From Acidobacteriota bacterium (GTDB lineage Bacteria; Acidobacteriota; Vicinamibacteria; Marinacidobacterales; Marinacidobacteraceae), in NCBI GenBank assembly GCA_022826825.1, contig JAJDUD010000027.1, positions 1,050 through 65,049 of the forward strand: DNA of 64,000 nucleotides, written 5' to 3'. This document shows positions 2,511 through 49,489 of the stretch, piece after piece. The notes under the pieces were generated by a model that saw only the letters and a list, made by a program, of their open reading frames with translations, was not told the origin of the DNA and ran no database searches. The translations under genes and the position numbers were made by a program. Numbering within the stretch: position 1 is the stretch's first letter; each line of letters starts with the position of its first letter.

Positions 2511-3299
2511 ATGAATGACGAAGCCCTGCGCAGTCTGCTCCAGGGGGTCGCCTCCGGCGAGGTGACGCCCGGCGAGGCGGCGCGGCGGTTGCGCTTTCCG
2601 TTCGAAACCATCGGCGTGGACGGCAAGACGCCGTTCGCGCGCCTCGACCACCAGCGGGAGCTCCGGCGGGGTTTCCCCGAGGTCGTGCTGGCGGAGGGGA
2701 AGAGCGCGGAACAGGTCGTGGAGATCGTTCGCGCGCTCCGCGAAACCGCCACTCAGACGCTCGTCACCCGGGCCGCCCCCGAGACGGCGCGCGCCGTCCG
2801 GGAAGCGGTTCCGGACGCGGTCTGGCATGCCGAGGCCCGGGCCGTCGTGGTCTCCCGCGCGGCCCCCGAGCCTACGGGCGCCCGGATCGGGGTGGTGTCG
2901 GCCGGAACTTCCGACATCCCGGTGGCCGAGGAAGCCGCCCTGACCGCGGAGCTCATGGGCGCCGAGGTCCGGCGGACCTTCGACATCGGGGTCGCGGGCA
3001 TCCAGCGGCTCCTCACCGAGGCGTCCCATTTCCGCTCGCTGCACGCCATGGTGGTGGTCGCCGGCATGGAAGCGGCGCTCGCGCCGGTGGTGGCGGGGCT
3101 CGCGCCCTGCCCGATCGTCGCGGTCCCCACGTCCACGGGGTACGGGGCGTCGTGGGGAGGGCTTACCGCGCTCCTTTCCCTGCTCAACAGTTGCGCCCCG
3201 GGGGTCACCGTGGTCAACATCGACAACGGATTCGGCGGCGGTTACGCCGCGGCGCTAGCGGTGGCGCATTTCCGGAGGCTCGAGTCGGACTCGCCGTAG
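2511..3299 (+). CDS. larB: LarB-family protein (PurE-like carboxylase, nickel-pincer cofactor biosynthesis family)
   Basis: 262 aa. The N-terminal helical segment (LRSLLQGVASGEVTPGEAARRL) is followed by a PurE/AIR-carboxylase-like fold (GVVSAGTSDIPVAEEAA...VVAGMEAALAPVVAGL). No larC or larE is nearby. Confidence 0.55.
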   Translation: MNDEALRSLLQGVASGEVTPGEAARRLRFPFETIGVDGKTPFARLDHQRELRRGFPEVVLAEGKSAEQVVEIVRALRETATQTLVTRAAPETARAVREAVPDAVWHAEARAVVVSRAAPEPTGARIGVVSAGTSDIPVAEEAALTAELMGAEVRRTFDIGVAGIQRLLTEASHFRSLHAMVVVAGMEAALAPVVAGLAPCPIVAVPTSTGYGASWGGLTALLSLLNSCAPGVTVVNIDNGFGGGYAAALAVAHFRRLESDSP

Positions 3300-7178: not shown

Positions 7179-7448
7179 ATGCAGATGATCCGGACCGAAG
7201 GGGAGAATCCGTTCCCGACCATCCATGCTGACGTCGTTGCATGCGAGGCTTGGTTGGTGGCTGCTTGGTTGGTGGCTGAATGCCGCGAGGTTGGTGTCGT
7301 CACCCAGGGCAAGACGCTGGACGAAAGGGTCGCAAGTCTCCGCGAAGCCCTGACGGTTCACCTCGACGGGGAGGGGTTGGACCGCCATGCTCCTTCCACC
7401 GGGCCGCGTCTGGTCGTGCGCTATGAGACGACGGCCTGCACGGCCTGA
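7179..7448 (+). CDS. HicB-like (UPF0150) antitoxin-family protein
   Basis: 89 aa: MQMIRTEGENPFPTIHADVVACEAWLVAAWLVAECREVGVVTQGKTLDERVASLREALTVHLDGEG. This fits the HicB pattern (...P.LPGC.SQG.T.EEA..N.KEA...HLE). Its GC content is lower than that of the flanking genes. No HicA partner was found. Confidence 0.4.
   Translation: MQMIRTEGENPFPTIHADVVACEAWLVAAWLVAECREVGVVTQGKTLDERVASLREALTVHLDGEGLDRHAPSTGPRLVVRYETTACTA
7248..7277 (+). repeat. Perfect tandem duplication of a 15-bp unit, gcttggttggtggct, inside the HicB-like ORF
   Basis: The two units are at 7248-7262 and 7263-7277. The duplication is in frame and produces the AWLVA-AWLVA repeat. Confidence 0.85.
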
Positions 7449-7608
7449 TTCTCCGCGTCCTCCGGTCCGGAGTGTTGTCGCCTCGCGTTCGGAACGGTCG
7501 GCGAGTCCATCGGGGCTCGAGAAGCCGCGTCGGACTCACGATGCGGGTGCACCGTGCCATCGACGCTGGTTTCGCGCTCCCGCGCGATGCCGGCCAGAGG
7601 CCGGCCCG

Positions 7609-7867
7609 GTTGCTGTGAAAACGCAGTCCGGCGGGTCGGCCGAGCGCCTTGATGGCGACGCCGGCTTGGAACGCCGACCTCCGGGCGGCACCGCGCTGCG
7701 TGACCGCGCAGCGCACGGCCCGGCGCCGAGCTGCGGGATGGTTCTCTCCCGCGGTGCAACCGGGCGGAAGGGACGCGCCCAGGTCTCTGTCGCCCAGGAC
7801 GACGTGCGGCACGTCGCCCGCGGGCCTTCGGCCCGCTGTGCCGACCGGAGGTCGGCGTTCCAAGCCG
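7609..7867. mobile_element. Family-1 MITE/REP-like element, copy A. It starts gttgctgtgaaaacgcagtccggcgggtcggcc and carries the 31-bp hairpin unit ccggcttggaacgccgacctccgg(g/t)cggcac in both orientations
   Basis: It is ~85-90% identical over ~260 bp to 27308..27570. The hairpin units are at 7670-7700 (forward) and 7836-7866 (reverse). The distal end (to ~7990) is degenerate. Confidence 0.65.
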
Positions 7868-8016
7868 TTACCGCCATTTTCATGCCCGGCGGGGTGCGCA
7901 GGAGGACGCGCGCAGGCGCGTTTCTCCCGGTGGGGGCTCCAAGCCGGGGCTGCCATCACGGGGTTCGGCGGATCGGCGAGTCTGCCTTCTCGTCGCCACG
8001 ATTTGGCGTCGCCGTC

Positions 8017-9630
8017 ATGGTGCTTTTGTTCGCGTCCTTCCAAACCTCGCCTGCGGCCGGTCAGATTGCGTTCCGCGACGTTGCCGAGACCGCCGGCATC
8101 TCCTTCCGGCACGAGCGGGGCGCCCGGGGCGAGTGGCACCCCGTGGAGACGATGGGGTCCGGCGTCGCCGTCCTCGACTACGACGGCGACGGGGCGCCCG
8201 ACCTCTTCTTCGTGCAGGGCGGGGAGGTGCCGGGGACGGGCCGGCCGCCGGGACCCGTGGGGGCGCTCTATCGCAACGAAGGGGCCGGGCGCTTTCGGGA
8301 CGTGAGCGTGGCGGCCGGGTTCGGAGCGCCAGCCCCGGTCGAGGGTCACGGGATGGGCGCGGTCGCCGCCGACTACGACAACGACGGGGACGCCGACCTG
8401 CTGATCACCCGCGCCGGACGGGACCTCCTCTACGCGAACCGGGGCGACGGGACGTTCACGCTCCGGGACGCGGGACTGAACGCGGCGGGCTGGAGCGCGA
8501 GCGCCGCCTTCTCGGACCTCGACGGGGACGGCGATCTCGATCTCTTCGTCACCCACTACCTCGACTGGTCCCCGGCGAACAACCCGGTGTGCGCGCGGAC
8601 GATCGCCGGCGAGCCGGTCCGCTCCTACTGCCTCCCCGACGCCTTCTCCGGAGTGCCGGACCTGCTCTACGAGAACCGCGGCGACGGTTCGTTCGCCGAC
8701 GTGACCGAGGCCGCCGGCGTGGGACTCCGGACCGGCAAGGGGCTCGGCGTCCTCGCCGCCGACCTGATCGGGGACTTTCTCCCCGACCTCTATGTGGCGA
8801 ACGACACGGTGCCCAACTTCCTCTTCGAGAACCTGGGAGGGCTGCGGTTCCGGGAACGGGGCCTCCCGGCGGGCGTCGCCTACGACGGCGACGGGAACGC
8901 CCTCGCCGGCATGGGGATCGCGGCGGCGGACATCGAGTCCGACGGGGACCTCGACCTGTTCGTCACGAACTTCCAGGGCGAGGCGAACAACCTCTACGTG
9001 TCGGACCGGCACGGCGTGTTCCGCGACGTCTCCTTCCTCTCCGGGGTGGGGCGCCCGTCGCTCGCCTGGCTGGGCTTCGGCGCCGTCTTCGCCGACCTCG
9101 ACAACGACGCCGCGCCGGACCTCTGCGTCACCAACGGCCACGTCCTCGACAACGCGCCGATCCTCTTTCCCGGAACGGACTACCGCCAGCGGGACGTCTG
9201 CTTCCGCAACCTGGGCGGTTCGTTCGAGCCGGTGGTGCTGGACCTGCCTCCGGCGGTCGGCCGGGGCCTGGTGGCGATCGATTTCGACGAGGACGGCCTC
9301 CTCGATCTCGCCGTCTCCCGCTCCGGCGGAACGGCGGCGCTGCTTCGGAATGGCGGCGACCCGGCTCCCCGGGCGGTGCTGCGCCTCGTGGGACGGGCCT
9401 CCAACCGCGACGGGGTCGGCGCCGAGGTCGTGGTGGACCGGGGAGGACGATCGAGCCGGTCGGTGGTCACCGCCGGATCGAGCTATCTGTCGTCCGGGGC
9501 CCGGGAGGTCTGGATCGGCCTTCGGCCCGGAGTCCCGGACTCGGTTAGGGTGCGCTGGCCTGCCGGCGCCGAACAGCCGGTTCGGGTGGACGGGCCGGGG
9601 TCGTTCCCGGTCGTCGAAGAACCAGACTAG
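8017..9630 (+). CDS. CRTAC1-family protein (FG-GAP/VCBS-like repeats plus an ASPIC/UnbV C-terminal domain), secreted
   Basis: 538 aa, starting MVLLFASFQTSPAAG (signal-like). It has repeated DxDGDGxxDL motifs (LDYDGDGAPDLFF, SDLDGDGDLDLFV, IESDGDLDLFVTN) and an UnbV-like C-terminus. The longer upstream extension of ORF 7387.. reads through repeat element A and is rejected. Confidence 0.7.
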   Translation: MVLLFASFQTSPAAGQIAFRDVAETAGISFRHERGARGEWHPVETMGSGVAVLDYDGDGAPDLFFVQGGEVPGTGRPPGPVGALYRNEGAGRFRDVSVAAGFGAPAPVEGHGMGAVAADYDNDGDADLLITRAGRDLLYANRGDGTFTLRDAGLNAAGWSASAAFSDLDGDGDLDLFVTHYLDWSPANNPVCARTIAGEPVRSYCLPDAFSGVPDLLYENRGDGSFADVTEAAGVGLRTGKGLGVLAADLIGDFLPDLYVANDTVPNFLFENLGGLRFRERGLPAGVAYDGDGNALAGMGIAAADIESDGDLDLFVTNFQGEANNLYVSDRHGVFRDVSFLSGVGRPSLAWLGFGAVFADLDNDAAPDLCVTNGHVLDNAPILFPGTDYRQRDVCFRNLGGSFEPVVLDLPPAVGRGLVAIDFDEDGLLDLAVSRSGGTAALLRNGGDPAPRAVLRLVGRASNRDGVGAEVVVDRGGRSSRSVVTAGSSYLSSGAREVWIGLRPGVPDSVRVRWPAGAEQPVRVDGPGSFPVVEEPD

Positions 9631-10715: not shown

Positions 10716-10765
10716 GAGTTTCGCTGGCCGCCGGCCGGCGATGCCGGTCTGAAGACCGGCGCTCC
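10716..10765. repeat. Family-2 repeat, solo right arm (gggagtttcgc...gcgatgccggtctgaagaccggcgctcc)
   Basis: It matches the right arm of the complete element at 18240..18458 and the arms at 39964 and 42691. Confidence 0.6.
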
Positions 10766-10839
10766 TCCCGGCGCTGCGGCAAGCCGCATAAAATGTCCCG
10801 TTGCCCATCGCGGCAGCAGCAGGAGGGCTCTCCACGGCC

Positions 10840-12897
10840 ATGGTAAAGATGATTCGTTCTTCTGTCGGCAGGCGTTCTGACCGGCTGGTGTTCTTTGGCG
10901 CGCTCGCGTGCGCCGGGCTCTTGTTCGCCGGGTCCGCCGCGGCGCAGGATCCCGCGGAACTCGTGGTGGATCCGCCCGAGCTGACGCTCGAGGTCGGAAC
11001 AACCGCGCAGCTCACCGCGACCGTCCGGGACGCGGCCGGCAACGCGCTCGAGCGCGGCGTGGTGTTCTTCTCGCGGGCCCGGCGCTACGTGGGGGTGAAC
11101 CCGGCGGGGATGGTGGAAGCCCACCGTCCCGGCGAGCACACCCTGATCGCCATGGTTCCGGCGGACCCCGGCGCCATGGACCGGCGCGCCGAGCCGGCGC
11201 TGATGGTCGAGATTCCGGTGACGGTGCCGTGGCCGCCGCTCGCGAGCGTCGAGATCGCGGCGCTTCCGGGCAATCTCTACGCCGGGACCTCCCTGCGGGT
11301 CACCGCCACGGCCACGGACACCTCCGGGGCCGAGCGCAAACCCGACTTCGCGTGGTCGTCGAGCGACTCCGACGTGGCGACGGTCAGCCCGCACGGGGTC
11401 CTGATGCTCCACGGCGAGGGGTCGGCGACGATCTCCGCGAGCGCCGAGTCCGCCAGCGGCGACGCCACGGTCCGGGTGAGCGCCAATCCGGCGGTCCGCC
11501 TCGAGGTCTCCGCTGCCGAGGAAGAGGTTCGCACCGGCGACGTGGTCTGGTTCGAGGGGCGCGCCCTCGACGCCGGCGGCAACGAGGTTCCCGACTTCCC
11601 GATCCAGTACGCGGTCTCGACCCGGACCCCGGACACCCTGGTGGCGCCCGGCGCGGCCGCCTTCGTGGAGCCGGACGGCGCCTTCGTCGCCGAGCGGCCG
11701 GGCCTCCACACCGTGGTGGCCGCCGGGGGCTCGCTCACCGCCCGGGAGACGATCCGTGCGGTCGGCCGCAACCTGAAGAAGGACTGGGAGATCGTGGGCC
11801 GGGGTCCGGTGCGCGACCGGCACACCTCGGACCTGTGGGTCTGGGAGGGTCTCGACGGCCGCGACTACGCGATCACCGGGACGTGGGGCGCCGACGGGCA
11901 CGCCTACTTCTGGGACGTGACCGATCCGTCGAGCATCCACCTCGTGGACACCGTCCGGGTGGACGCCCGCACCGTGAACGACGTGAAGGTCTCGCCCGAC
12001 GGCAAGTTCGCGGTCATCAGCCGGGAAGGCGCCTCCAACCGGCGGAACGGGCTGGTGGTCCTCGACGTGGCGAACCCCACCGACGGGGTGAAGATCATCG
12101 CCCGCTACGACGACCAGTTGACCGGCGGCGTCCACAACACGTTCGTGGCCGAGAACCACATCCTGGCGCTCTCCGCCGGGCGGCGCTACGACATCCTGAA
12201 CGCCGAGGATCCCGAGAACCCCTACCGGGTGGGACGCTTCGAGCTCGACACTCCCGGCCACGGCATCCACGACGTCTGGGTGCAGGACGGCATCGCCTGG
12301 TCCTCGAACTGGACCGACGGGGTGGTCGCGGTGGACATCGGCGGCGGCGGCAAGGGCGGCGCCCCCAACAACCCCGTGATGATGGGCAGCTTCAAGTACC
12401 CGAACGGCTGGAACCACGCCGGCTTCCCCTACCGGAGCCAGTCCACCGGCAAGATGCTGGTGTTCGCCGGCGACGAGAACTTCCCCTGGGGCTTCGACCC
12501 CGAGGGCAAGCTCCCGGACCGGGCGGCGGGCTGGGTCCACATCGCCGAGTGGGATGAGGACGGCGGGATCGGCCGCGAGGTGGCGCGCTACCAGGTCCCC
12601 GAGGCCGGCACCCACAACCTCTGGATCGAGGACGACATCATGTATGTCGGCTACTACAACGGCGGCCTCCGGGTGGTGGACGTCTCCGGCGAGCTGCGCG
12701 GCGACCTCTACCAGCAGGGCCGGGAGATCAGCTTCTTCGAGCCGGCCGATCCCGAAGGCTTCAAGCCCAACGCCCCGTTCGTCTGGGGCCCGCAGCCTTT
12801 CAAGGGCACCATCTTCTTCACCGACTTCAACTCGGGCCTCTGGGCCGTCCGGCTCGTGGATCCCGAGACCCCGCGCAACATGGGGGAACCCAACTGA
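10840..12897 (+). CDS. Secreted Big_2 (bacterial Ig-like) + LVIVD-repeat beta-propeller protein, paralog 1
   Basis: 685 aa. A signal peptide is followed by Big_2-like segments (TATVRDAAGN..., ATISASAESASGDATVRV) and then LVIVD repeats (NGLVVLDVANP, GGLRVVDVSGE). It is ~55-60% identical to paralogs 2-4. Confidence 0.7.
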   Translation: MVKMIRSSVGRRSDRLVFFGALACAGLLFAGSAAAQDPAELVVDPPELTLEVGTTAQLTATVRDAAGNALERGVVFFSRARRYVGVNPAGMVEAHRPGEHTLIAMVPADPGAMDRRAEPALMVEIPVTVPWPPLASVEIAALPGNLYAGTSLRVTATATDTSGAERKPDFAWSSSDSDVATVSPHGVLMLHGEGSATISASAESASGDATVRVSANPAVRLEVSAAEEEVRTGDVVWFEGRALDAGGNEVPDFPIQYAVSTRTPDTLVAPGAAAFVEPDGAFVAERPGLHTVVAAGGSLTARETIRAVGRNLKKDWEIVGRGPVRDRHTSDLWVWEGLDGRDYAITGTWGADGHAYFWDVTDPSSIHLVDTVRVDARTVNDVKVSPDGKFAVISREGASNRRNGLVVLDVANPTDGVKIIARYDDQLTGGVHNTFVAENHILALSAGRRYDILNAEDPENPYRVGRFELDTPGHGIHDVWVQDGIAWSSNWTDGVVAVDIGGGGKGGAPNNPVMMGSFKYPNGWNHAGFPYRSQSTGKMLVFAGDENFPWGFDPEGKLPDRAAGWVHIAEWDEDGGIGREVARYQVPEAGTHNLWIEDDIMYVGYYNGGLRVVDVSGELRGDLYQQGREISFFEPADPEGFKPNAPFVWGPQPFKGTIFFTDFNSGLWAVRLVDPETPRNMGEPN

Positions 12898-14050: not shown

Positions 14051-16117
14051 ATGACCGAGCAGCACTCGAATTCCTGGACGCGGTTCCTGATCGCGTTCGG
14101 TTGCACCCTCGCGCTGGTCCCGGGACTCGCGCTGGCCCAGGAAGAGGCGGAGGCCGAGGAAGGCCCGCAGCCCGCCGAGCTCATCGTTACCCCGTCCGAG
14201 CTCGAGCTCGAGGTCGGCGACTCGCTGACGCTCGAGGCCGAAGTCCGGGACGGCGACGGCAACCCGATGGACCGCACGGTGGTGTTCTATTCGCGCCGCC
14301 GGCGCTCGGTGGGCGTGAACCCGGCGGGCATCGTCGAGGCCTACCGGCCGGGCGAGCACGTCCTGATCGCCATGGTGCCGAAGGACCCGGAGGACCTCCA
14401 CCGGCGGGCCGAACCCGCAGTGATGGTGGAGATCCCGGTGACGATCCCCAACCCGCCGGTGGCGACGGTCGAGGTCGCGAACCTGCCGGGGCACCTGTAC
14501 GCAGGGACCGAGATCGGCCTGCGCCCGACGGTCACGGACATCTCGGAGGCCGTCCGGCACGACGTGGAGGTCGGCTGGAGCACCGCGGACCCGTCGGTCG
14601 CGAGCGTGGACGCCCTCGGGGTGCTGACCCTGGTGAGCGCCGGGCGGACCACCCTGACGGTCTCCGCCGAGGAGGCTTCGAGCGACACCGCCATCGAGGT
14701 GCTCGCCAACCCGGTCGCCTCGATCACCCTCGGCGGGGCGCCGGCGGAGCCGGTGCGCACCGGCGACGTGGTGTTCTTCGAGGCGAAGGTCACGGACGCC
14801 TCCGGGAACGAGGTGCCCGACTACCCGGTGCAGTTCGCCACCTTCGGCATCCCCGCCGACGGGATCGTGGCCCCGGGCGCGATCGGCCAGGTCGATGACG
14901 CGGGCGCCTTCGTGGCCGAGCGGTCGGGAACCCACACGGTGATCGTGGACGGGTTCAACCACTCGGCGAGCGCGACGGTCGCGGTCGTCGCCCGGAACGT
15001 GCGGAAGGACGTCGAGGTCGTGGGACGGGGCCCCGTCCGCGACCGGCGCACCTCCGACCTCTGGGTCTGGGAGGGCACCGACGGCCGGGACTACGCCGTG
15101 ACCGGCACCCACAGCGCCGACGGCCACGCCTACTTCTGGGACGTCACCGACCCGTCGGCGATCTCGCTGATCGACACCGTGCGGGTGGACGCCCGGACGG
15201 TGAACGACGTCAAGGTCTCGGAGGACGGCAAGTTCTGCGTGATCAGCCGGGAGGGCGCCTCGAACCGGAAGAACGGCCTGGTGATCCTCGACGTCAGCGA
15301 CGTGCAGAACGGCATCGAGGTGATCGCCCGCTACGACGACCAGCTCAGCGGCGGCGTCCACAACGTCTTCATCGCCGAGGACCACATCTACGCGCTCTCG
15401 GCGGGCCGGCGCTACGACATCCTGAACGCCGAGGACCCGACGAACCCGTACCGGGTGGGACGCTTCGAGCTGGACACCCCCGGCCACTCCATCCACGACG
15501 TGTGGGTGGCGGACGGGATCGCCTACTCCTCCAACTGGAACGACGGGATCGTCGCGGTGGACGTGGGCGGCGGCGGCATGGGCGGTGCGCCGAACAACCC
15601 GGTGATGCTCGGAAGCACCCCGTACCCGAGCGGCTGGAACCACGCGGCGTATCCCTACCGCAGCAAGTCCACCGGCAAGTTCCTGATGATCGGCGGGGAC
15701 GAGGCGTTCCCGTACCAGTTGATGGAAGGGCCGCGAGCCCCGCGCCGGGCGGCCGGCTGGATCCACATCTTCGAGTGGGACGAGTGGGACAACCCCAAGG
15801 AAGTGGCCCGCTACCAGGTGCCGGAGGCGGGAACCCACAACCTGTGGGTCGAGGACGACATCCTCTACATCGCCTACTACAACGGCGGCCTGCGGGTCGT
15901 GGACATCTCCGGCGAGATGCGCGGCGACCTCTACCGCCAGGGGCGCGAGATCGCCATGTTCCGCCCCTTCGATCCCGAGACCGTCAAGCCGAACACCCCC
16001 TTCGTCTGGGGGCCGCAGCCCTACAAGGGCCACATCTTCATCGCCGACAACAGCTCGGGCCTCTGGGCGGTCAAGCTCGTGGACGCCGAGCCGCGCAACC
16101 TTGGTGAACCGCACTAG
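14051..16117 (+). CDS. Secreted Big_2 + LVIVD beta-propeller protein, paralog 2
   Basis: 688 aa. It is ~85-90% identical to paralogs 3 and 4, with a GGGAGG ribosome-binding site upstream. Confidence 0.75.
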   Translation: MTEQHSNSWTRFLIAFGCTLALVPGLALAQEEAEAEEGPQPAELIVTPSELELEVGDSLTLEAEVRDGDGNPMDRTVVFYSRRRRSVGVNPAGIVEAYRPGEHVLIAMVPKDPEDLHRRAEPAVMVEIPVTIPNPPVATVEVANLPGHLYAGTEIGLRPTVTDISEAVRHDVEVGWSTADPSVASVDALGVLTLVSAGRTTLTVSAEEASSDTAIEVLANPVASITLGGAPAEPVRTGDVVFFEAKVTDASGNEVPDYPVQFATFGIPADGIVAPGAIGQVDDAGAFVAERSGTHTVIVDGFNHSASATVAVVARNVRKDVEVVGRGPVRDRRTSDLWVWEGTDGRDYAVTGTHSADGHAYFWDVTDPSAISLIDTVRVDARTVNDVKVSEDGKFCVISREGASNRKNGLVILDVSDVQNGIEVIARYDDQLSGGVHNVFIAEDHIYALSAGRRYDILNAEDPTNPYRVGRFELDTPGHSIHDVWVADGIAYSSNWNDGIVAVDVGGGGMGGAPNNPVMLGSTPYPSGWNHAAYPYRSKSTGKFLMIGGDEAFPYQLMEGPRAPRRAAGWIHIFEWDEWDNPKEVARYQVPEAGTHNLWVEDDILYIAYYNGGLRVVDISGEMRGDLYRQGREIAMFRPFDPETVKPNTPFVWGPQPYKGHIFIADNSSGLWAVKLVDAEPRNLGEPH

Positions 16118-18188: not shown

Positions 18189-18239
18189 GGAGAACCCTGG
18201 GAGCGCCGGCCAGTCCTCCCGGGTGGGGCCTTCAGACCA

Positions 18240-18458
18240 GGAGCGCCGGTGTTCACACCGGCATCGCGGCCGCAGGCCGCGAAACTCCCGGCGCCATCGC
18301 GCCACATTGCGGGGACCCGAGACGAAGACGGCGAAATCGGAGTGCGCGCGCGCCGTTGTCGTCGCGCCACTCCCTTTGACGGGGGCGCCATGCGGCGAAA
18401 TGAAGCCCGGGAGTTTCGCCCGCTGCGCGGGCGATGCCGGTGTGAACACCGGCGCTCC
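18240..18458. mobile_element. Family-2 MITE-like element, 219 bp, with perfect 28-bp terminal inverted repeats (ggagcgccggtgttcacaccggcatcgc ... gcgatgccggtgtgaacaccggcgctcc)
   Basis: The terminal repeats are exact reverse complements. The interior is also partly palindromic. Related arms occur at 10716, 39964, 42691 and 42999. A family-1 right-end fragment (ctgcatttgcacagcaactgg) follows at 18470..18497. Confidence 0.7.
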
Positions 18459-18572
18459 TCGCCATCCCCGCCGTCGGCCGGGCTGCATTTGCACAGCAAC
18501 TGGCCGGCACCGCCCGCCGCAGGCGGGCGAAATCCCCGCGGTGCCGTCTACACCCGCGGGGCGGTCGCGTCT

Positions 18573-23197: not shown

Positions 23198-23295
23198 TCC
23201 GTACTCTGCCTGGATTCGCCTTCGGAGCCGGCGCCGGACGCCGGCTCACGCTGGCGTTCCGAGCGGCTGCGCCATCCGGGGGAATGAGGTCCGTC

Positions 23296-27285: not shown

Positions 27286-27727
27286 CACCGGCTTGGAACG
27301 CCGGCCAGTTGCTGTGAAAATGCAGTCCGGCGGGTCGGCCGAGCGTCTTGATGGCGCAGCCGGCTTGGAACGCCGGCCTCTGGCCGGCACGCGCTGCGCG
27401 ACCGCGCAGCGCACGGCACGGCGCCAACCTGCGGGATGGTTCTCTCTCGGTGCAAACGGGCGGAGGGGACGCTCCCGGACCTCTGTCGCCCGAGACGACG
27501 AGCGGCGCGTCGCCCGCGGGCCTTCGGCCCGCTGTGCCGACCCGAGGTCGGCGTTCCAAGCCGTACGCGCCACGGGGCGGTTCAGCCCTACGCCGTTGCG
27601 GCCCTGCGGGCCGCGTGCCGACCGGAGGTCGGCGTTCCAAGCCGGCTGCGCCATCACGGCTGTTGGCCGACCCCGCAGGATTGCATGTTCACAGCAACTG
27701 GCTGGAGGCCGGCGGTCCCAGCCGTTT
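27286..27727. mobile_element. Family-1 composite MITE-like element, copy B, with ~45-bp imperfect terminal inverted repeats (cggcttggaacgccggccagttgctgtgaaaatgca ... tgcatgttcacagcaactggctggaggccggcggtcccagccg) and three internal 31-bp hairpin units
   Basis: The ends are reverse complements of each other, as seen in the sequence. The hairpin units are at 27363, 27525 and 27618. The interior is ~85-90% identical to 7609..7867. Confidence 0.65.
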
Positions 27728-27773
27728 CCCTGATCTGCGCCCGTTACGCTTCGTGGCCGCGAGGAGGACCCCG

Positions 27774-28742
27774 ATGCGCATCGTTTCCCTGGCCGAGATT
27801 CAGGCGGCCATCGCCCCGGAGGCCGCCATCGACGCGGTGAAGGCGGGGTTCATCGCCCATGCGAAGGGGCTGGTGGAGTGCCCCGAGCCCACGCAGATCG
27901 TGTTCCGCGATGAGCAGGGGGACCACCACGGCGAGTGTCACGTCAAGTCGGCCACCTGGGAGGGCCTCCCGTACGCGGCGGTCAAGATCGCGTCGGGGTC
28001 CTACCGGAACGCGGCGCGCGGCCTGCCGGGCGCCGGCGGCATGATCGTCCTGATCGCTTCCGAGACCGGGCTCCCGGAGGCGATCCTGCACGACGAGTGC
28101 TGGCTCACCAACGTCCGCACCGCCGCCGCCGGGGCCCTCGCCGCCGGCCTGAAGCCGGTCTCGAAGGACGCGACCCTGGGCGTGATCGGCACCGGGACCC
28201 AGGCGGAGATGCAGGCCGAGATGATCTGCGCCCACCTCGGGCTCGGTTCGGTCGCCGTCTGGGGGCGGAACCCGACCAGGGCGGCCGCGCTCGCCGACCG
28301 GCTGCGGGCCGGCGGGCTCGCGGCGACCCCGATGGCCACCGTCCGCGAGGTGTGCCACGCGAGCGCCATCCTGGTGACGACCACTCCCGCCACGAGCCCC
28401 GTCGTCCATCTCGAAGACGTTCCCGAGACGCTCCACATCGTCGCCGTCGGGGCCGACACCCCGGGGAAGACGGAACTGGACTCGCGCATCCTGGGCAGGG
28501 CCCACACCATCGTCACCGACGCTCACCAGGAATGCCTCAGCAACAGCGACTTCGGGGCCGCGGTGCGGGCCGGAGAGATCGCGGAGGACTGCGACGCTTC
28601 CTTCGGGGAGATGCTGGCGCTCGCCGAGCCGGACCCGCGGCTGGCGCGGGACGGGATCTCGGTCGTCGATCTGACCGGGATGGGGGTTCAGGACCTCGCG
28701 ATCGCGGAGATGACGCTGAACGCGCTGGCGGATTCGCGGTAG
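27774..28742 (+). CDS. Ornithine cyclodeaminase / mu-crystallin family protein
   Basis: 322 aa with a Rossmann motif (GVIGTGTQAEMQAE) and family-like ends. The upstream extension of ORF 27348.. reads through repeat element B and is rejected. Confidence 0.75.
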   Translation: MRIVSLAEIQAAIAPEAAIDAVKAGFIAHAKGLVECPEPTQIVFRDEQGDHHGECHVKSATWEGLPYAAVKIASGSYRNAARGLPGAGGMIVLIASETGLPEAILHDECWLTNVRTAAAGALAAGLKPVSKDATLGVIGTGTQAEMQAEMICAHLGLGSVAVWGRNPTRAAALADRLRAGGLAATPMATVREVCHASAILVTTTPATSPVVHLEDVPETLHIVAVGADTPGKTELDSRILGRAHTIVTDAHQECLSNSDFGAAVRAGEIAEDCDASFGEMLALAEPDPRLARDGISVVDLTGMGVQDLAIAEMTLNALADSR

Positions 28743-35754: not shown

Positions 35755-36267
35755 ATGAGTCGAAAGAAGACCGCCAGGAAGAAACGCCGGTTGCGCTCCG
35801 CCGGAGCGCACGGGGGAGGCTTCCGCAACGAGCAGGTGCTTTCGGAGAACCGGAGGGCGCGGCGGAACTTCGTCATCCTCGAGCAGTTCGAGGCGGGCAT
35901 CGCGCTCACCGGCGCCGAGGTGAAGTCCTGCCGGGCGGGCGGGGCGAACCTTAAGGACGCCTACGGCCGCGAGCGGAACGGCGAGATCTTCCTCGTGAAC
36001 TGCCACATCGCCCCCTACGTGAACGCACCCGCCGACCAGGGGAACCCCGAGCGGAACCGGAAGCTCCTCCTCCACGAGGACGAGATGCGCCGGATCGCCG
36101 GCAAGCTCACCACCGCCGGCCTGACGCTCGTGCCGCTCCGCATCCACCTCCGGAACGGCTGGATCAAGGTCCAGGTCGCCCTTGCCAAGGGCAAGAGCAC
36201 CCGCGACCGCCGCGAGACCATCCGCCGCCGCGAGGCCGACCGCGAAGCCCGCGAAGCGCTCGGCTAG
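35755..36267 (+). CDS. smpB: SsrA-binding protein SmpB
   Basis: 170 aa. The core reads NRRARRNFVILEQFEAGIALTGAEVKS...LLLHEDEMRRI...KGKSTRDRRE. It has an Arg/Lys-rich N-terminal extension. Confidence 0.8.
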   Translation: MSRKKTARKKRRLRSAGAHGGGFRNEQVLSENRRARRNFVILEQFEAGIALTGAEVKSCRAGGANLKDAYGRERNGEIFLVNCHIAPYVNAPADQGNPERNRKLLLHEDEMRRIAGKLTTAGLTLVPLRIHLRNGWIKVQVALAKGKSTRDRRETIRRREADREAREALG

Positions 36268-36286
36268 GGAAAGGGGAGGCGGCGCG

Positions 36287-36437
36287 CCGGCTTGGAACGC
36301 CGACCTCCGGTCGGCACGCGCGGTGCTCCGCACCGCGCACGTCACAACCGCCCCCGGAAACGGTGGCTCTCACCTCGGCGTGGAGCGCAAGAGCGGAGGC
36401 GGCACACCGGCTTGGAACGCCGACCTCCGGTCGGCAC
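36287..36437 (+). repeat. Two direct copies of the family-1 hairpin unit (gaggcggcRcRccggcttggaacgccgacctccggtcggcac) separated by a ~90-bp spacer
   Basis: The units are at 36287-36317 and 36407-36437. Each contains the 7-bp stem gccgacc-tcc-ggtcggc. They lie between smpB and the S9 peptidase gene. Confidence 0.7.
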
Positions 36438-36532
36438 CGCTGCGCGAAGCGCAGCGAGGGCGCGGACGCCCACCGGCATCCAGGGCGCGCTCCGTAGAAT
36501 CGGCCCGGTCCCACGTCGCCGGGAGGTATCCC

Positions 36533-38488
36533 ATGCCCAGGCTCCCCAAATCCATCGCTCTCTCGGCCCTCCTGTCGACCGTCCTCGCCGCTCCCACCGC
36601 CGCCCAGAACGCACCCCAACCACTCCCCGTCGAGACGCTCCTGTCGCTCTCCTCCGCCGTGGGCGGCGAGACGCCGCGCTGGGCCCCCGACGGCGAGCGG
36701 ATCCTCCTCGGCGGCGCGAACCTGCGGCTCCTCCGCGCCGAGGGCGGCGCCATCAGCGAACTCCCGCTATCCACGGGAGGCAGCGGCCATTTCCTGGCGT
36801 CGGCCGAGCCGAAGTGGTCGCCCGACGGACGATGGATCTCCTACGTGTCCGACCGAAGCGGCACCCCGGAGATCTGGCTCTGGTCCATCGAGAAAGGCGA
36901 AGCGCTCCGCCTCACCGGGAACGGCGGACGGCTGATCAAGGGCACCTCCTGGTCGCCGGACGGGCGCCGGATCGCGTTCGCCGGCAATCGTCACGGGCAG
37001 TACGACGTGTGGACGGTGGAGGTCCCGTCCGGAGAGGCCCGCCGGCTGACCGACGGACCCGCACTGGAGGTCTATCCCGCCTGGAGCCCCGATTCCGCCT
37101 CCGTCCTGTTCGTCCGGCTCGACGGCGCATGGATGGACCACACCATCGTGGAAATCCCGGCCGGCGGCGGCGAAGAGCGGGTCATCGTGCGCGACGAGGA
37201 CTTCTTCGACTACGGCGAGGGGGGCACGTTCGGCTATCCCCTCATCTCCCCGGACGGCTCGACGGTGGTCTTCCCGTCCTACCGCTCCGGGTGGATCAAC
37301 TACTGGAGCGTGCCCCGCGCGGGAGGAGAACCCACGCGGCTGGCGGCGGCCGAGGCCGACCAGACGGAGGGCGCCTGGTCCCCGGACGGCGGCGGGTTCG
37401 CGTACGTCGAGAACCACGGGGGCACCTACCAGCTCAAAGTCGCGCCGGCGGACGGCGGGAAGCCGCGCGTCATCGCGGCGCCCGAATCCGGAATCGTCGG
37501 ATCCCCCCAGTGGTCTCCGGACGGCGGCCGCATCGCAACCACCCTCGAGACCCCGACCCGTCCCGGGGATCTGGTGGTCCACGACCTTGCCTCGGGGACG
37601 TCGGCCCGGCTGACCGACTCGGTGCCGATGGAGGGCATCGAAAGTCGCCTCGCCAAGCCCGGGAAGGTGGCGTTTTCGAGCGGGGACGGTCTGGAAATCC
37701 CCTCCTACCTCTACCGGCCCGGCGCCGGCTGGGGCGACGAGGACGGCCGCCATCCGGCGATCGTCTGGACCCACGGCGGACCCACGTCGCAGTGGGAGGA
37801 CAGCTTCGAGCCCGCGATCCAGTTCTTCGTGCAGCGCGGCTATGTGGTGCTGCTGCCCAACGTGCGCGGCAGCTCCGGGTACGGGCGCGCGTTCGAGGAG
37901 GCCAACGACGGCTGCTGGGGCAAGTGTGACTTCGCCGACGCGGTGGCGGCCGCCGAGTACCTCCGGACCCTCCCCTACGTCCACCCGCAGCGCATCGGGA
38001 CCACCGGCACCAGCTACGGCGGGTTCATGTCGTGCGCGGCGGTGAGCTTCGGCGGCGAGACCTTCGGAGCGGTGATCGCGGCGTCCGGCTACTGCGACCG
38101 CGTCACCTTCTTCGAGGACGGCGAGTTCCGCCACCTGCAGCAACTGCGGAAGGAGATGGGCCGGCTCGAGGAGCACCGGGACCGCTACCTCGCGAACTCC
38201 CCCTACTACCACCTCGCCGATGCGCAGGCGCCCGTCTTCGTCCTCCACGGCGAGGGCCGCTACCCGGGCTCGCCGCAGATGACCGAGTTCTTCCGGGAGC
38301 TCCAGCGCCTCTACAAACCCGCCCGCTACAAGGCCTATCCCGGCGAGAACTTCTACGTCCGGGGCTTCGACAACACGATGGAGATGCTCGCCGACATGAA
38401 GGCGTTCTTCGATTTCTATCTGCTGGGCCGGAACGTGAACCTGCCGGGGGTCGGATACCTGGAGGAACTCGAGGGCGTGTCGCACTGA
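36533..38488 (+). CDS. S9-family serine peptidase with an N-terminal beta-propeller, paralog of 23369..25348
   Basis: 651 aa from the ATG at 36533, with a GGGAGG ribosome-binding site (MPRLPKSIALSALLSTVLAAPTAAQ signal). It has WSPDG propeller repeats, a GTTGTSYGG serine motif and an HGG... motif. The upstream part of ORF 36182.. reads through the hairpin repeats and is rejected. Confidence 0.8.
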   Translation: MPRLPKSIALSALLSTVLAAPTAAQNAPQPLPVETLLSLSSAVGGETPRWAPDGERILLGGANLRLLRAEGGAISELPLSTGGSGHFLASAEPKWSPDGRWISYVSDRSGTPEIWLWSIEKGEALRLTGNGGRLIKGTSWSPDGRRIAFAGNRHGQYDVWTVEVPSGEARRLTDGPALEVYPAWSPDSASVLFVRLDGAWMDHTIVEIPAGGGEERVIVRDEDFFDYGEGGTFGYPLISPDGSTVVFPSYRSGWINYWSVPRAGGEPTRLAAAEADQTEGAWSPDGGGFAYVENHGGTYQLKVAPADGGKPRVIAAPESGIVGSPQWSPDGGRIATTLETPTRPGDLVVHDLASGTSARLTDSVPMEGIESRLAKPGKVAFSSGDGLEIPSYLYRPGAGWGDEDGRHPAIVWTHGGPTSQWEDSFEPAIQFFVQRGYVVLLPNVRGSSGYGRAFEEANDGCWGKCDFADAVAAAEYLRTLPYVHPQRIGTTGTSYGGFMSCAAVSFGGETFGAVIAASGYCDRVTFFEDGEFRHLQQLRKEMGRLEEHRDRYLANSPYYHLADAQAPVFVLHGEGRYPGSPQMTEFFRELQRLYKPARYKAYPGENFYVRGFDNTMEMLADMKAFFDFYLLGRNVNLPGVGYLEELEGVSH

Positions 38489-38918: not shown

Positions 38919-39085
38919 CTGCGACCGCGTCACCTTCTTCGAGGACGGCGAGTTCCGCCACCTCCAGCAACTGCGGAAGGAGATGGGCCGGCGTGAGGAG
39001 CACCGGGACCGCTACCTCGCGAACTCCCCCTGCTACCACCTCCCCGACGCCCGGGGTCGGGTACCTCGAGGGCGTATCCCGCTGA
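38919..39085 (+). pseudogene. Degenerate duplicate of the 3' end of the S9 peptidase gene (≈38092..38224 fused to ≈38441..38488)
   Basis: It is ~95% identical over ~130 bp (ctgcgaccgcgtcaccttcttcgaggacggcgagttccgccacct...) and has an internal deletion. It lies directly after the HicB-like gene. Confidence 0.65.
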
Positions 39086-39207: not shown

Positions 39208-39957
39208 ATGAGATCCAAGATGGCGCTCGCGCTCTCCGCGGCGCTGGCGTGCGCGGCCATCGCCGGCGACGCTCCGGCGCAGACCGGGCCGCAACCGCCC
39301 CCGGACAAGGAGGCCATCCGGGAGATCGTCCGGGAGTATCTGCTCGAGCATCCGGAGGTGATCGAAGAGGCGATCCGCGCGCTCCAGGCGAAACGCCAGG
39401 CCGACCAGGCGGCGAGGACGCGGGACGCGCTGGTGAAGAACCGCGTGGCGCTGGTGGACCACCCGATGTCGCCTGTCTCCGGCAACCCGGAGGGCGACGT
39501 GACGCTCGTGGAGTTCTTCGACTACCAGTGCGGCTACTGCAAGCGCTCGCTCGAGCCGGTCATGGACCTGCTCGAAACCGACCCGGGACTGCGGGTCGTG
39601 TGGAAGGACTTTCCGGTGCTGGGGCAGGTCTCGACGTTCGCCGCGCTCGCGTCCATGGCGGCGCAGAAGCAGGGGAAGTACCTGGCGTTCCACAAGGCGC
39701 TCATGGGGGCGGCGGACCGCCTCAGCGAGGAGTCCGTGATCGAGATCGCGGGACAGGTCGGCCTCGACGTCGCGCGCCTCCAGCGGGACATGGCCGACCG
39801 CGAGATCATCGCCTATCTGCAAGACACCCAGCGTCTTGCCCGCGAGCTCGGGATCAACGGGACCCCGGCCTTCGTGATCGGGAACACGCTGGTGCCCGGC
39901 GCCGTCGACGGCGCCCGGCTCCGTCAGCTCATCGCCCAGGCTCGCACCGGCGGCTGA
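39208..39957 (+). CDS. DsbA-family periplasmic thiol:disulfide oxidoreductase
   Basis: 249 aa with a signal peptide. The thioredoxin active site is CGYC (FFDYQCGYCKR). The fold is DsbA-like (NGTPAFVIG). Confidence 0.75.
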   Translation: MRSKMALALSAALACAAIAGDAPAQTGPQPPPDKEAIREIVREYLLEHPEVIEEAIRALQAKRQADQAARTRDALVKNRVALVDHPMSPVSGNPEGDVTLVEFFDYQCGYCKRSLEPVMDLLETDPGLRVVWKDFPVLGQVSTFAALASMAAQKQGKYLAFHKALMGAADRLSEESVIEIAGQVGLDVARLQRDMADREIIAYLQDTQRLARELGINGTPAFVIGNTLVPGAVDGARLRQLIAQARTGG

Positions 39958-39963
39958 TGGGAA

Positions 39964-40004
39964 CGCCGGTCTCTGACCGGCATCGCCCGCGCAGCGGGCG
40001 AAAC
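39964..40004. repeat. Family-2 repeat arm (cgccggtctctgaccggcatcgcccgcgcagcgggcgaaac) between the convergent dsbA and TonB-dependent receptor genes
   Basis: It matches the arms of the 18240..18458 element and the arm at 42691. Confidence 0.6.
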
Positions 40005-42668: not shown

Positions 42669-42690
42669 GCCCGAACACGATAGCGGAATC

Positions 42691-43026
42691 GGAGCGCCGG
42701 TCTTCAGACCGGCATCGCCCGCGCAGCGGGCGAAACTCCCGACGCCATTTCGCCGCATTGCACCGCCGCTCAAAGGAACGGCGAGGCGCCTGCACGGGCG
42801 TACGCTGCGTCGCCATCCCCGTTCCGGACCCCCGCGACGGGGCGCCATGGTGCCGCGAGTTTGCTGTGAGAATGCAGTCCCGCGGGTCGGCCAAGCGCCG
42901 TGAGAACGCCGCCGGCCGGCGTCCCAGTCGTTCCGCCGTTCTCATCACCGGCGGGGTGTGCGGCACATCCCGGTCATGCCCGTTTCACGCCGTTGGCCGC
43001 GATGCCGGTCCGATGACGGGCGCTCC
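42691..43026. mobile_element. Nested composite repeat: family-2 arms (42691.. and 42999..43026) enclosing a family-1 left-end fragment (42859..42960)
   Basis: The left arm reads ggagcgccggtcttcagaccggcatcgcc. The degenerate right arm reads gcgatgccggtccgatgacgggcgctcc. The internal segment gtttgctgtgagaatgcagtcccgcgggtcggcc matches the family-1 start. Confidence 0.5.
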
Positions 43027-43200
43027 CGATGGCCTCCATACGGACGGGTTGCACCGAGCCATCGCTGATGACGATGGCCTCCCCGGTCGTCCGGCATCGT
43101 CCCGCGCCGTGGACAGGGGTTGAGCAACGCCTGTGCGTGCATCGACTGGATTGACGAAATAGACGGAATAGACGATAATCTGCCTAACGAGGCCAACAGG

Positions 43201-43818
43201 ATGAAGAACACGGTCATCGAAGCAGGGGAAGATCCAATTGGGGCGCTGGAAGGTGTGGTGCATGCGGCCGCTCGCCATCTGAGCGCCCGCCACATCGCCG
43301 CACTGGCGCAACATCCGGAAGCCGTGAGATCCGCATTGGCGGCGGTAGCGGCCACCTTGGCGACCGAGGGAGCGCCGGTGCCCACTGGGGAGGTCGAGAC
43401 GATCAGGGGCGAGGCGCCCAATCTGATCAGCGCTGCGGAGGGGGCTCGACGTCTGGATGCCATCACCCAACCCGGACCGAGTGAAGACGTGCTGAGTTCC
43501 GACGAGCTTGCCGCCCGCATGGGCTTCAAGACCCGTCAGTCAGTCCACAACCAACGCATCAAGGGCAGGATCGTGGGCTGGCAGACCGTTCGGCGGGGTT
43601 TCGTCTTTCCGGCCGGGCAGCTCGACGAACGGGGCAGGCCTCCGGCGGGATTGGAGCGCGTCGTGCCGCATTTCGCCGACGGATACTCCGCGTGGATGTG
43701 GCTTCAATCGCCGCAACCGGCGCTGGATGGGGCCGCGCCACTCGATGTGTTGAGGCGGGGGCACGCGGAATCGGTCGCAGCCGCCGCGCGAGGAGAAACG
43801 CAAGGCGACTTCATGTGA
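43201..43818 (+). CDS. Xre/MbcA/ParS-family antitoxin (DUF2384 toxin-binding domain), partner of the RES toxin
   Basis: The C-terminal motif AWMWLQSPQPALDGAAPLDVLRRGHAESV matches the ParS/MbcA pattern (W...P.LGG..P.DLL). The start is uncertain and alternatives exist at 43120. The stop overlaps the toxin GTG as GTGA. Confidence 0.6.
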   Translation: MKNTVIEAGEDPIGALEGVVHAAARHLSARHIAALAQHPEAVRSALAAVAATLATEGAPVPTGEVETIRGEAPNLISAAEGARRLDAITQPGPSEDVLSSDELAARMGFKTRQSVHNQRIKGRIVGWQTVRRGFVFPAGQLDERGRPPAGLERVVPHFADGYSAWMWLQSPQPALDGAAPLDVLRRGHAESVAAAARGETQGDFM

Positions 43819-44408: not shown

Positions 44409-44611
44409 CCGGGTTCCACCACACGCGCAAGGCTGCTCAACCAGATTCCCGACCCCTCTGGGAGAGCCGGCCAATGTTCCGACCAACGTCACACGGACGG
44501 ACGGTCCGCCGTTTACGGAGTTGGCCGACCGGCAGAACCGGCGGAGAGGGCAGCCGCCACGCGTCTCGATCAGGAAGGGCGCGGTACTCCCCGGATCAGA
44601 CCGGCACTGCC

Positions 44612-45550: not shown

Positions 45551-45583
45551 CGGTTCTCCGTCCGGCTGGACGTGACACCGATG

Positions 45584-49467: not shown

Positions 49468-49489
49468 TGGCCGTGCGGCAGGTCGGGTC

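Follow-up and report, generated by a model that had tools for sequence, protein, structure and literature searches.

What are the palindromic repeats that recur between the genes of a 64,000-nt stretch of Acidobacteriota DNA (contig JAJDUD010000027.1, positions 1,050 to 65,049; hereafter the window), and at which level, DNA or RNA, do their hairpins act? An initial annotation, made from the letters of this stretch, had recognized two large copies of a composite element, here called A (near 7.6 kb) and B (near 27.3 kb), built around a short hairpin unit, and had proposed that they resemble repetitive extragenic palindromic (REP) sequences and serve as transcript-stabilizing or terminator structures. 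Our analysis makes it probable that the 31-nt unit, CCGGCTTGGAACGCCGACCTCCGGTCGGCAC, is the core of a lineage-specific, DNA-level, non-autonomous mosaic family, similar to REPs and bacterial interspersed mosaic elements (BIMEs), that has multiplied in the intergenic DNA of Candidatus (Ca.) Marinacidobacterium-like Acidobacteria. The assignment to a DNA-level REP/BIME-type repeat draws on an extragenic location, high copy number, lineage restriction, covariation confined to Watson-Crick pairs, absence of strand bias, fixed doublets, arrays, mosaics and rapid turnover.

A 31-nt unit recurs in the window and in related genomes

Within the window, the unit matched at eight positions with at most three mismatches (Table 1), against an expectation of zero, as none of 100 dinucleotide-preserving shuffles gave a match, and the 7-bp stem reported at the outset, GCCGACC/GGTCGGC, was confirmed. 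A covariance model of the unit added two more, a ninth unit of variant sequence at 39954-40000 and, on the minus strand, a degenerate copy at 23217-23266. Three of the recurrence sites listed initially, 23319, 36287 and 36407, were borne out; the fourth, 42859, carries the end module GTTGCTGTGAAAATGCAG instead, beside which the covariance model finds no unit of this family. The peptide readings AWNADLRSA and ADRRSAFQAG follow directly from the unit sequence, and the suspicion that the repeats inflate spurious long open reading frames (ORFs) held: ORFs 7387..9630, 27348..28742 and 36182..38488 traverse repeats, unlike the Pfam-supported proteins, which begin near 8017, 27774 and 36533.

To place the unit beyond the window, an exact-pattern scan with one genome per species was used, and it returned at least 73 stretches in 10 assemblies, all of them Acidobacteriota among the matches listed; the similarity of A and B is therefore not the product of a single local duplication, the outcome under which the initial annotation would have withdrawn its claim. 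Among the same matches, the assemblies comprise Ca. Marinacidobacterium spp. (OZ244986.1, OZ252286.1 and CBDHFO01; class Vicinamibacteria, order Ca. Marinacidobacterales), a metagenome-assembled genome (MAG) of Vicinamibacteria (CAXXLQ01), and MAGs labeled 'Acidobacteria bacterium' or 'uncultured Acidobacteriota bacterium' (JAJEIY01, JAJEFG01, JAJDVI01, VXWI01, VXNL01 and CAYUVU01). OZ244986.1 holds at least 59 exact matches in 41 blocks of 8 kb, spread along the whole 4.2-Mb chromosome; among the matches listed the numbers are uneven, with 59 in OZ244986.1 versus 4-5 in relatives, figures that are indicative only. The window is syntenic with OZ244986.1 at 82-89% nucleotide identity, so that its species is related to OZ244986.1 but different from it.

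We further compared the window with related loci and contigs (designated by L-numbers), and in 644 kb of unit-bearing DNA the covariance model gave 235 matches at E<1e-5. The exact pattern had no match in JGI metagenome contigs, where a relaxed pattern retrieved 36 stretches, about 10 of them genuine relatives with the 5' flank GGTACG-GGAAC and the others due to chance. In the viral contig L110 (4175-4225; IMGVR_UViG_3300037524_001675), a TAA stop codon is followed, at a distance of 5 nt, by a unit-like GGAACGCCGGCCTCTGGCCGGCAC and then an 11-bp hairpin, which may hint at a phage or prophage of this lineage or be a chance match; one match in viral contigs to the 18-nt insert described below is probably due to chance. 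A literature search found no mention of Marinacidobacterium and no occurrence of these repeat sequences.

Two adjacent hairpins covary by Watson-Crick pairs

The anatomy of the unit was derived from 153 copies in the window and related loci. An unpaired conserved motif, CGGCTTGGAAC, is followed by a first hairpin (P2), the dinucleotide AC and, directly thereafter, a second hairpin (P3). P2 is a 7-bp stem of constrained sequence with a TCC or TCT loop; its variants carry an A-T pair in 79 copies, a G-C pair in 39 and a double GT/AC change in 14, with 7 copies mismatched, and this pairing is not an ascertainment effect, because the database pattern left those positions free. P3 pairs perfectly over 6 bp or more in 109 of 134 units, versus 5% in shuffled controls, through 66 distinct sequences, and its loops are mainly GCA, GGA, GAA, GGGA or GACA (83, versus 9 with TCC). 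The contrast between a constrained motif plus P2 and a free P3 suggests that a protein recognizes CGGCTTGGAAC/P2, with P3 needed only as a hairpin.

Covariation was quantified with a covariance model built from 47 distinct units, to which 150 matches were aligned, with the caveat that the alignment is fitted to the model. Standard pairs occupied 96.3% of the cells, compared with 28-45% when the partner columns were slid, and 9 of the 15 pairs showed changes on both sides (254 cells). Four base pairs make up the variable core of P3 and switch chiefly between G-C and C-G, while the two foot pairs of P3 (GC) and the closing C-G pair with a GNA-type loop are nearly invariant. G·U pairs were present in only 13 of 1816 cells. 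Such near-absence of wobble fits a palindrome in duplex DNA, since any G·T of one strand reads as A·C in its complement; in a strand-specific RNA, G·U would be tolerated. Moreover, C-GNA-G triloops are unusually stable in single-stranded DNA, and the 3' hairpin of the unit has such a loop whichever strand is read: on the top strand this hairpin is P3, on the bottom strand it is P2, whose loop there reads GGA or AGA. Such loops would agree with a single-stranded DNA intermediate.

A and B are two copies of one mosaic

A (7606-7876) and B (27305-27572) share 241 identities in 271 aligned columns (88.9%), as anticipated by the earlier estimate of about 85-90% over some 260 bp. The limits then given for A, 7609-7990, were wrong: repeat-derived DNA around A runs from about 7507 to 7975 and includes further truncated units. 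B is a 437-bp palindromic composite, for which terminal inverted repeats (TIRs) of about 45 bp had been proposed. Inverted arms are indeed present and measure 34 nt (27301-27334/27672-27705, 88% complementarity) and 62 nt (27332-27393/27612-27673, 87%), together about 93-112 nt at 87-88% complementarity, and they continue outward as half-units at 27288-27306 and 27700-27724. Folding prediction for single-stranded DNA gave one long hairpin for B (-186 kcal/mol, z = -14.5) and z = -7.1 for A, which has the left end module only, the right-hand one of B being missing. The flanks and outer modules of the two elements also differ.

A and B are thus two copies of one mosaic with a 208-nt doublet of oppositely oriented units ('+ -') as its core, framed in B by long inverted arms. 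The doublet (7661-7868; 27360-27564) was recovered full-length in L049, L048 (twice), L017 and L065 at 69-78% identity, and its arms pair over only about 44 nt. No target-site duplication (TSD) was detected for B; its flanks are half-units in inverted orientation, not a direct duplication.

Units are extragenic and prefer gene 3' ends

Genes were called from third-position GC content, and no unit lies inside a gene, three apparent exceptions being over-extended start codons. Unit-bearing intergenic regions were convergent in 28 of 55 cases, versus 53 of 244 in the background, and divergent regions were depleted (8 of 55). In the window, the flanking genes encode SmpB, S9 peptidases, an FG-GAP/ASPIC protein, an ornithine cyclodeaminase-like protein, a DsbA-like protein and a TonB-dependent receptor. 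The gene ends adjacent to units were 3' ends in 184 instances and 5' ends in 90, a preference that fits both a role at 3' ends and simple tolerance of insertion there; given this ambiguity, a secondary effect at the RNA level may exist.

This preference is one ground for the strongest competing explanation, namely that the units are RNA-level 3'-end elements, either terminators lacking a U-tail or mRNA-protecting 3' hairpins, and are selected for that role. Units often stand just after stop codons, GC hairpins are very stable, and units are retained after the same gene in diverged genomes, all of which would be expected of such elements, as would the enrichment in convergent regions. However, units between co-directional genes are oriented without bias relative to the upstream gene (sense in 16 cases, antisense in 12), their hairpins are not followed by a T-run, and a terminator scan called no unit. 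The scarcity of G·U pairs speaks against selection on a transcript, arrays of 6-16 copies go far beyond what a terminator needs, and units lie within larger inverted-repeat elements and are broken up by other repeats. We therefore regard an RNA-level role as having a minor, though appreciable, probability, and the stabilizer or terminator function put forward initially was supported by no test. An intrinsic terminator in the strict sense was rejected, as there is no T/U run, no call by the scan and no orientation preference.

As to arrangement, 64 of 175 units have no neighbor within 300 nt. Neighboring pairs were direct in 46 cases (modal spacing 84-86 nt) and '+ -' in 18 (135-283 nt); '- +' did not occur. 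Direct repetition extends to head-to-tail arrays of 6 x 84 nt (L005) and 16 x 79 nt (L068), both of which begin just after a stop codon, and in which adjacent members may differ in P3, with the rest of the repeat almost identical. A CRISPR-like array, considered for L005 with its five matches at 84-nt spacing, was dismissed, the whole 79-86-nt period being repeated and the 'spacers' near-identical.

Mosaicism and rapid turnover

BLAST coverage of A against the related loci broke into blocks of independent copy number (7 to 149) with sharp edges: about 45 for the tail of a truncated unit of the 'gamma' subtype (described below), 7-11 at the end module, 140-149 at the units, 7-12 across the central spacer and 17-97 in the right-hand modules. 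Module combinations vary between loci. The end module, (C)CAGTTGCTGTGAAAATGCAG, is in every case adjacent to a GGCC-type sequence, which is often an arm of a P2 hairpin, and at 18199-18529 the two halves of a unit lie on either side, indicating that an element with CAGT-type ends was inserted inside P2.

Between the window and OZ244986.1, intergenic repeat content differs at every comparable site. At about 3255-3299 of the window, for instance, the convergent genes overlap; OZ244986.1 has a 785-bp element there, with 20-bp TIRs, a TTAG duplication and units inside. The same gene pair is separated by about 540 nt with five units in L019 and by about 170 nt with one unit of the other subtype in L043, and L049 and L063 bear arrays of differing composition after the same stop codon. 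An orthologous unit shared by L026 and L057 differs in P3, and the P2 of the L057 copy is split by a 19-20-nt insert. Collectively, these orthologous-site comparisons show that repeat clusters turn over much faster than genes and that single units can persist.

Elements of about 800 bp at L047 2595-3377 and L042 4671-5494, absent from the window, have 20-bp TIRs (CCCGAATTTCTCATACTCAC) and a TTAG-like duplication and carry unit mosaics as cargo.

Relation to known repeat families

The closest architecture is that of REP/REPIN sequences and BIMEs, with BOX-/MIRU-type tandem traits and, in B, a framing like that of MITEs (miniature inverted-repeat transposable elements). REP-like is a good analogy because the units are short GC-rich palindromes, of high copy number, strictly extragenic, mosaic and common to related genomes, so this part of the initial proposal fits both structure and distribution. 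REPs and REPINs with their associated tyrosine transposases (RAYTs) in E. coli and Pseudomonas (PMC3116915, PMC3733652) are likewise short GC-rich extragenic palindromes in tens to hundreds of copies, with one preferred inverted-doublet configuration, compensatory stem changes, long-term persistence largely within one lineage and a preference for positions downstream of genes. REPs have been defined as palindromes of 20-40 bp with many extragenic copies (PMC3733652), and the present unit has 31 nt, a 7-bp stem and the 235 matches given above. Untagged REP-like families are known from Mycobacterium, Deinococcus, Bordetella, Brucella and cyanobacteria (PMC3733652). The unit family is apparently another untagged family of this kind, in a lineage with no earlier report of one, and its sequences are absent from the literature searched.

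Differences are equally clear. Unlike a classical REP, the unit has two hairpins, the second hypervariable; unlike the short spacer between the inverted REPs of a REPIN, the doublets have long spacers (135-283 nt) and, with 18 '+ -' cases, are fewer than singletons and direct arrays. Whereas a REPtron includes a RAYT gene, none was found in the unit-bearing DNA examined (644 kb plus 208 kb of metagenome loci).

BIMEs of enterobacteria are mosaics of palindromic units and a limited number of other motifs. The intergenic mosaics described here, too, combine a palindromic unit with few recurring modules in variable combinations and numbers, a resemblance of organization and not of homology: the modules are unrelated in sequence, the units of arrays are direct and not alternating, and the mosaics may be framed by long inverted arms (B) or lie in elements with TIRs and TSDs (L047). 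Clustered mosaic REP regions have been discussed before (PMC3733652). In the same phylum, hairpin repeats of class 3 TnpA-Y1 (HUH) transposases are known from Acidobacteria and Planctomycetes, with about 600 copies in Solibacter usitatus (PMC6006769); like our units, they are high-copy 'atypical' structures without a GT[AG]G foot. They have a CnGA 5' foot and flank a class 3 gene (PMC6006769), whereas the feet of our unit are GAAC (P2) and CAC (P3), or GTTTC and GT on the other strand. The two are thus set apart by description, and neither a class 3 gene nor a class 3-like motif (NHVH ... YV..EQ) was seen in the unit-bearing loci searched.

BOX elements of Streptococcus pneumoniae and MIRUs of mycobacteria are modular non-coding repeats in which one module is tandemly reiterated between genes, BOX having the fixed order A-Bn-C. 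Variable tandem reiteration between genes is shared by the present family, with array lengths that are not multiples of three; sequences and hosts are unrelated, MIRUs lack the design of one conserved and one variable hairpin, and the order of BOX is fixed. B resembles a MITE in its size and long terminal inverted repeats and differs from one in that no TSD is identifiable, the 'TIRs' are made of units and no autonomous partner is known. REP hairpins are targets of IS1397 and ISKpn1, of which IS1397 sits in REP loops; similarly, other elements sit precisely inside the P2 hairpin of our unit.

The family therefore joins traits that are usually separate, namely doublets of one configuration, long head-to-tail arrays, a constrained next to a free hairpin, and nesting within hairpins. 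On the reading preferred here, it would be the first well-defined REP/BIME-like family in an uncultured, largely sponge- and marine-associated order of Acidobacteria, and would lend itself well to studying the spread of untagged REP-like repeats that lack an obvious RAYT. Practical consequences also arise: in a genome of 70% GC the repeats give long spurious ORFs and shift predicted starts, they are likely break points of short-read assemblies, and their array length and mosaic composition, which differ between close relatives, make them candidate strain-typing loci.

Mechanism and alternative explanations

If the family is a DNA-level REP/BIME-like repeat, its hairpins would be maintained and act in DNA, on either strand, and the units would be spread by a trans-acting enzyme reading CGGCTTGGAAC plus P2 in single-stranded DNA; by analogy, a RAYT-like or class-3 HUH Y1 transposase is the leading candidate. 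Arrays may grow by slippage or unequal exchange. Perfect P3 stems could be kept by intra-hairpin template switching, by selection for the hairpin, or by both; template switching of this kind (quasipalindrome correction) is expected to give perfect palindromes with flips and hardly any intermediates. Effects on mRNA 3' ends, if there are any, would be incidental.

Several observations weigh against this DNA-level, mobilized repeat. Neither a six-frame pattern search for HUH/Y1 motifs nor tblastn with an approximate E. coli RAYT query found anything in the 644 kb of unit-bearing DNA and the 208 kb of metagenome loci; Pfam scans of 30 window ORFs showed no transposase. In nine syntenic locus pairs, no clean filled-versus-empty site was recovered for A, B, the doublet or any unit, and no clean TSD around units, the doublet or B, which we attribute to intergenic regions turning over too fast; transposition, as opposed to recombination and slippage, is thus only a candidate route of spread. 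The unit lacks the GTAG and CGTC tags of REPs (PMC3733652) at the stem foot on either strand, P2 being flanked by ...GGAAC and AC and P3 by CAC and GAAAC or GG. Direct neighbors are the commonest (46 versus 18 inverted), whereas head-to-tail dimers of REPs are negligible (PMC3733652). The strand asymmetry of the P3 loops is not needed by a purely duplex palindrome, and no replichore-linked orientation bias was visible on OZ244986.1, a weak test as the origin position is unknown. Units have also been kept after the same stop codons in genomes about 82% identical, with motif and P2 conserved and P3 changed, and those of L050 and L058 are about 97% conserved (5 differences in 180 nt, read by eye) versus 91.7% for the region; conservation above the regional level could reflect a host function.

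One such function would be the binding of a host protein, for nucleoid organization or of the gyrase or IHF type proposed for some BIMEs, with selection keeping the sites uniform and spread being secondary. The conserved CGGCTTGGAAC and constrained P2 next to a free P3 would suit a binding site, as would the near-identity of the unit across genomes whose genes share 82-89% and the scatter of copies over the whole OZ244986.1 chromosome. We nevertheless hold this to be improbable: copies cluster in arrays of up to 16 and in nested mosaics, their numbers among the matches listed are highly uneven between genomes (indicative, as given above), and no candidate protein is at hand, while a transposase recognizing the motif explains the conservation equally well.

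A structured RNA or small self-cleaving ribozyme is highly improbable. The three-way junction of the first-family and gamma units described below (GGAG/CTCC, P2, P3, GAAA) recalls the outline of a type III hammerhead, with two hairpins followed by GAAA(C), a closing GGAG...CTCC helix in the first family and strong covariation, but P2 and P3 are joined by AC or ATC in place of CUGANGA, and the family-2 units of the window lack the closing helix. In addition, units stand in both orientations relative to transcription with G·U nearly absent, and Rfam gave nothing at the gathering threshold for the window and, at E up to 10 for A and the L005 array, only chance-level miRNA and CRISPR matches (CRISPR-DR, E 1.4-4.7), with no hammerhead among them. 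Finally, that A and B are one local segmental duplication or an assembly artefact, as two large copies at 89% identity in the window might suggest, has next to no probability, because many further genomes and contigs carry units and the 208-nt doublet, the flanks and outer modules differ, and the 11% divergence speaks against an artefact.

Subtypes form one superfamily

The initial annotation had treated the unit as a second family, apart from a first one in the same window. The covariance model of this second family, however, matched first-family copies (10722-, 18234+, 18417- and 42684+) at 25-31 bits, and from these matches and the common two-hairpin architecture we conclude that the two families form one superfamily. 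First-family units read GGAGCGCC-P2-CATC-P3-GAAACTCCC, also given as GGAGCGCCGGTnTTCAnACCGGCATCGC, a variable hairpin and GAAACTCCC, and add a closing GGAG/CTCC helix to the two-hairpin design; two of the copies, at 18234 and 18417, are arranged as an inverted doublet whose 53-nt arms are 89% complementary. The gamma subtype, GGAGCGCCGGTCTCCGACCGGCAT-CGCGCGGGAGCGCG-AAAC, connects both families and is represented by the truncated copy beside A and by the 16-copy array of L068. In metagenome contigs L074, L076, L078, L082, L084, L091, L092, L096, L101 and L104, we observed a further subtype, GGAACGCC-P2-CAC-P3, preceded by CCGGTACG and not by CGGCTT. Given this different 5' flank, the conserved core is GGAAC plus P2, and the 5' extension is lineage-specific.

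An 18-nt insert in units and in an unrelated MITE

The related loci contain a discrete 18-nt insert, CCAGTTCTCCCGGTGGGG, in 74 different contexts, each of them with the frame CC...GC. Neither TIRs nor a target duplication accompany the insert, and it begins with CCAGTT, as does the end module of A and B. When orthologous or paralogous repeat copies are compared, it is present or missing in exact 18-nt steps; it is present in L042 and not in the paralogue L003, and present in L057 and not in the orthologue L026. In units, the insert splits P2 hairpins or parts the GGAAC motif from P2.

The same insert occurs in a MITE unrelated to the unit, 183 nt long, with the TIR TA(A/G)CAGCCTGTGGTGAAACCC and a TAG-like duplication, of which 17 copies were present in related loci and none in the window. 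Its lengths of 183, 200/201, 219, 237-240 and 255 nt correspond to 183 + n x 18, and the 18-mer resides at six or more internal sites in different combinations. Orthologous copies in L053 and L061 (91% identical) differ by four indels of exactly 18 nt, one of them a 36-nt tandem pair. The MITE has a clean filled/empty site (L010 versus L043). Options for the mechanism of the 18-nt insert are enzymatic insertion, template switching across palindrome arms and gene conversion among paralogues.

A rather speculative idea, which we think doubtful, is that a single structure-specific DNA strand-transfer system, which would cut and join at GC-rich hairpins with no TSDs, might act on units, CAGTT-ended modules and the 18-nt insert alike. 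If this were true, no discrete mobile DNA segment smaller than the 18-mer would have been described to date, and the hypervariable 4-bp core of P3 would be an address or specificity element and not neutral filler.

Further features of the window

Coordinates of the repeats and other features are compiled in Table 1.

Table 1. Positions of units, modules and other features (window coordinates unless a locus is named)
Feature	Coordinates	Strand	Remarks
Matches to the 31-nt unit	7661+, 7838-, 23319-, 27360+, 27534-, 27615-, 36287+, 36407+		at most 3 mismatches
5'-truncated gamma unit	7573..7605	-	tail continues to ~7507; 45 copies of module in related loci; sharp boundary 7605/7606
Gamma P2	7589-7605		GCCGGCC AGA GGCCGGC as read on + strand
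Gamma P3	7574-7585		GCGC TCCC GCGC
CAGTT-type end module (CCG GTTGCTGTGAAAACGCAG)	7606..7626	+	left end of A
Linker ending GATGGCG	7627..7660	+	GATGGCG precedes most units of this genome
Unit 1 of A	7661..7691	+	1 mismatch, in 3' arm of P2
P3 of unit 1	7693..7714	+	GCGCTGCG / CGCAGCGC, 6-nt loop
Central spacer of doublet	7715..7819	.	84% identity to B; 7-12 copies in related loci
P3 of unit 2	7820..7836	-	GCGGGCC GAA GGCCCGC on unit strand
Unit 2 of A	7838..7868	-	with unit 1, '+ -' doublet 7661-7868, 208 nt
CCGCCATTTTCATGCCCGGCGGGGTG... module	7869..7918	.	17-97 copies in related loci
Degenerate 18-nt insert copy (CGTTTCTCCCGGTGGGG)	7919..7935	+	in A
Remnant third unit, 5' part (CGGCTTGGAGC, 7936-7946), and inverted partner of left linker	7936..7975	-	end of A's repeat DNA
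18-nt insert	18210-18227
Unit + P3	23299..23349	-	solo, between convergent genes
Outer half-unit of B (CCGGCTTGGAACGCCGGCC)	27288..27306	+
Left CAGTT-type end module of B	27306..27325	+
Unit + P3 of B	27360..27412	+	G-C variant of P2
P3 + unit of B	27514..27564	-	'+ -' doublet with 27360
P3 + unit of B	27595..27645	-	inverted partner of B left arm
Right CAGTT-type end module of B	27681..27700	-
Degenerate outer half-unit of B (CGGCTGGGACCGCCGGCCTCCAGCC on own strand)	27700..27724	-
Unit + P3	36287..36337	+	solo, 20 nt after smpB stop codon
Unit + P3	36407..36456	+	second direct unit, 120 nt downstream of 36287 unit
Variant unit (GGGAACGCCGGTCTCTGACCGGCAT + P3 + GAAAC)	39954..40000	+	overlaps stop codon of DsbA-like gene
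CAGTT-type end module + linker	42859..42900	+	no recognizable unit
End module (-, 18483-18501) abutting 3' half-unit (GCCGGCAC + P3, +)	18483..18529		matching 5' half at 18199-18210
First-family copies	10722-10770(-), 18234-18281(+), 18417-18464(-), 42684-42732(+), 42995-43028
18-nt insert comparisons	L061 6123-6377 vs L053 2403-2585; L003 1745 vs L042 ~5270; L057 2740-2810 vs L026 988-1035
183-nt MITE examples	L008 1940-2122, L056 530-730, L039 1779-2033
HNH protein	44612-45550	-	dnd block
Class-V aminotransferase	45584-46714	-	dnd block
PAPS-reductase-like DndC	47950-49467		dnd block
SMC/AAA_23 DndD-like protein	49406-51466		dnd block
DndE	51463-51882		dnd block; E = 4e-41
PLD-helicase	56310-58193	-	dnd block
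Big_2/LVIVD paralogues	10888-12897, 14051-16117, 16131-18188, 19259-21277		repeat clusters in some gaps between

A block of low GC content at about 43100-58200 (0.55-0.66 versus about 0.70) holds a dnd-type DNA phosphorothioation cluster and is probably an acquired defense island whose left border is formed by the repeats at 42684-43030. The block had been considered as a mobile element carrying the repeats, a candidate set aside in favor of the dnd defense island.

Two direct duplicates of 137 nt, 94% identical, lie at 38092-38228 and 38919-39055, a repetition of the 3' end of an S9 peptidase gene in the following intergenic region; in the syntenic L060, the corresponding gap holds two units instead. 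Furthermore, four tandem paralogues of about 680 aa, with Big_2 and LVIVD beta-propeller repeats, share 70-89% DNA identity over long stretches.

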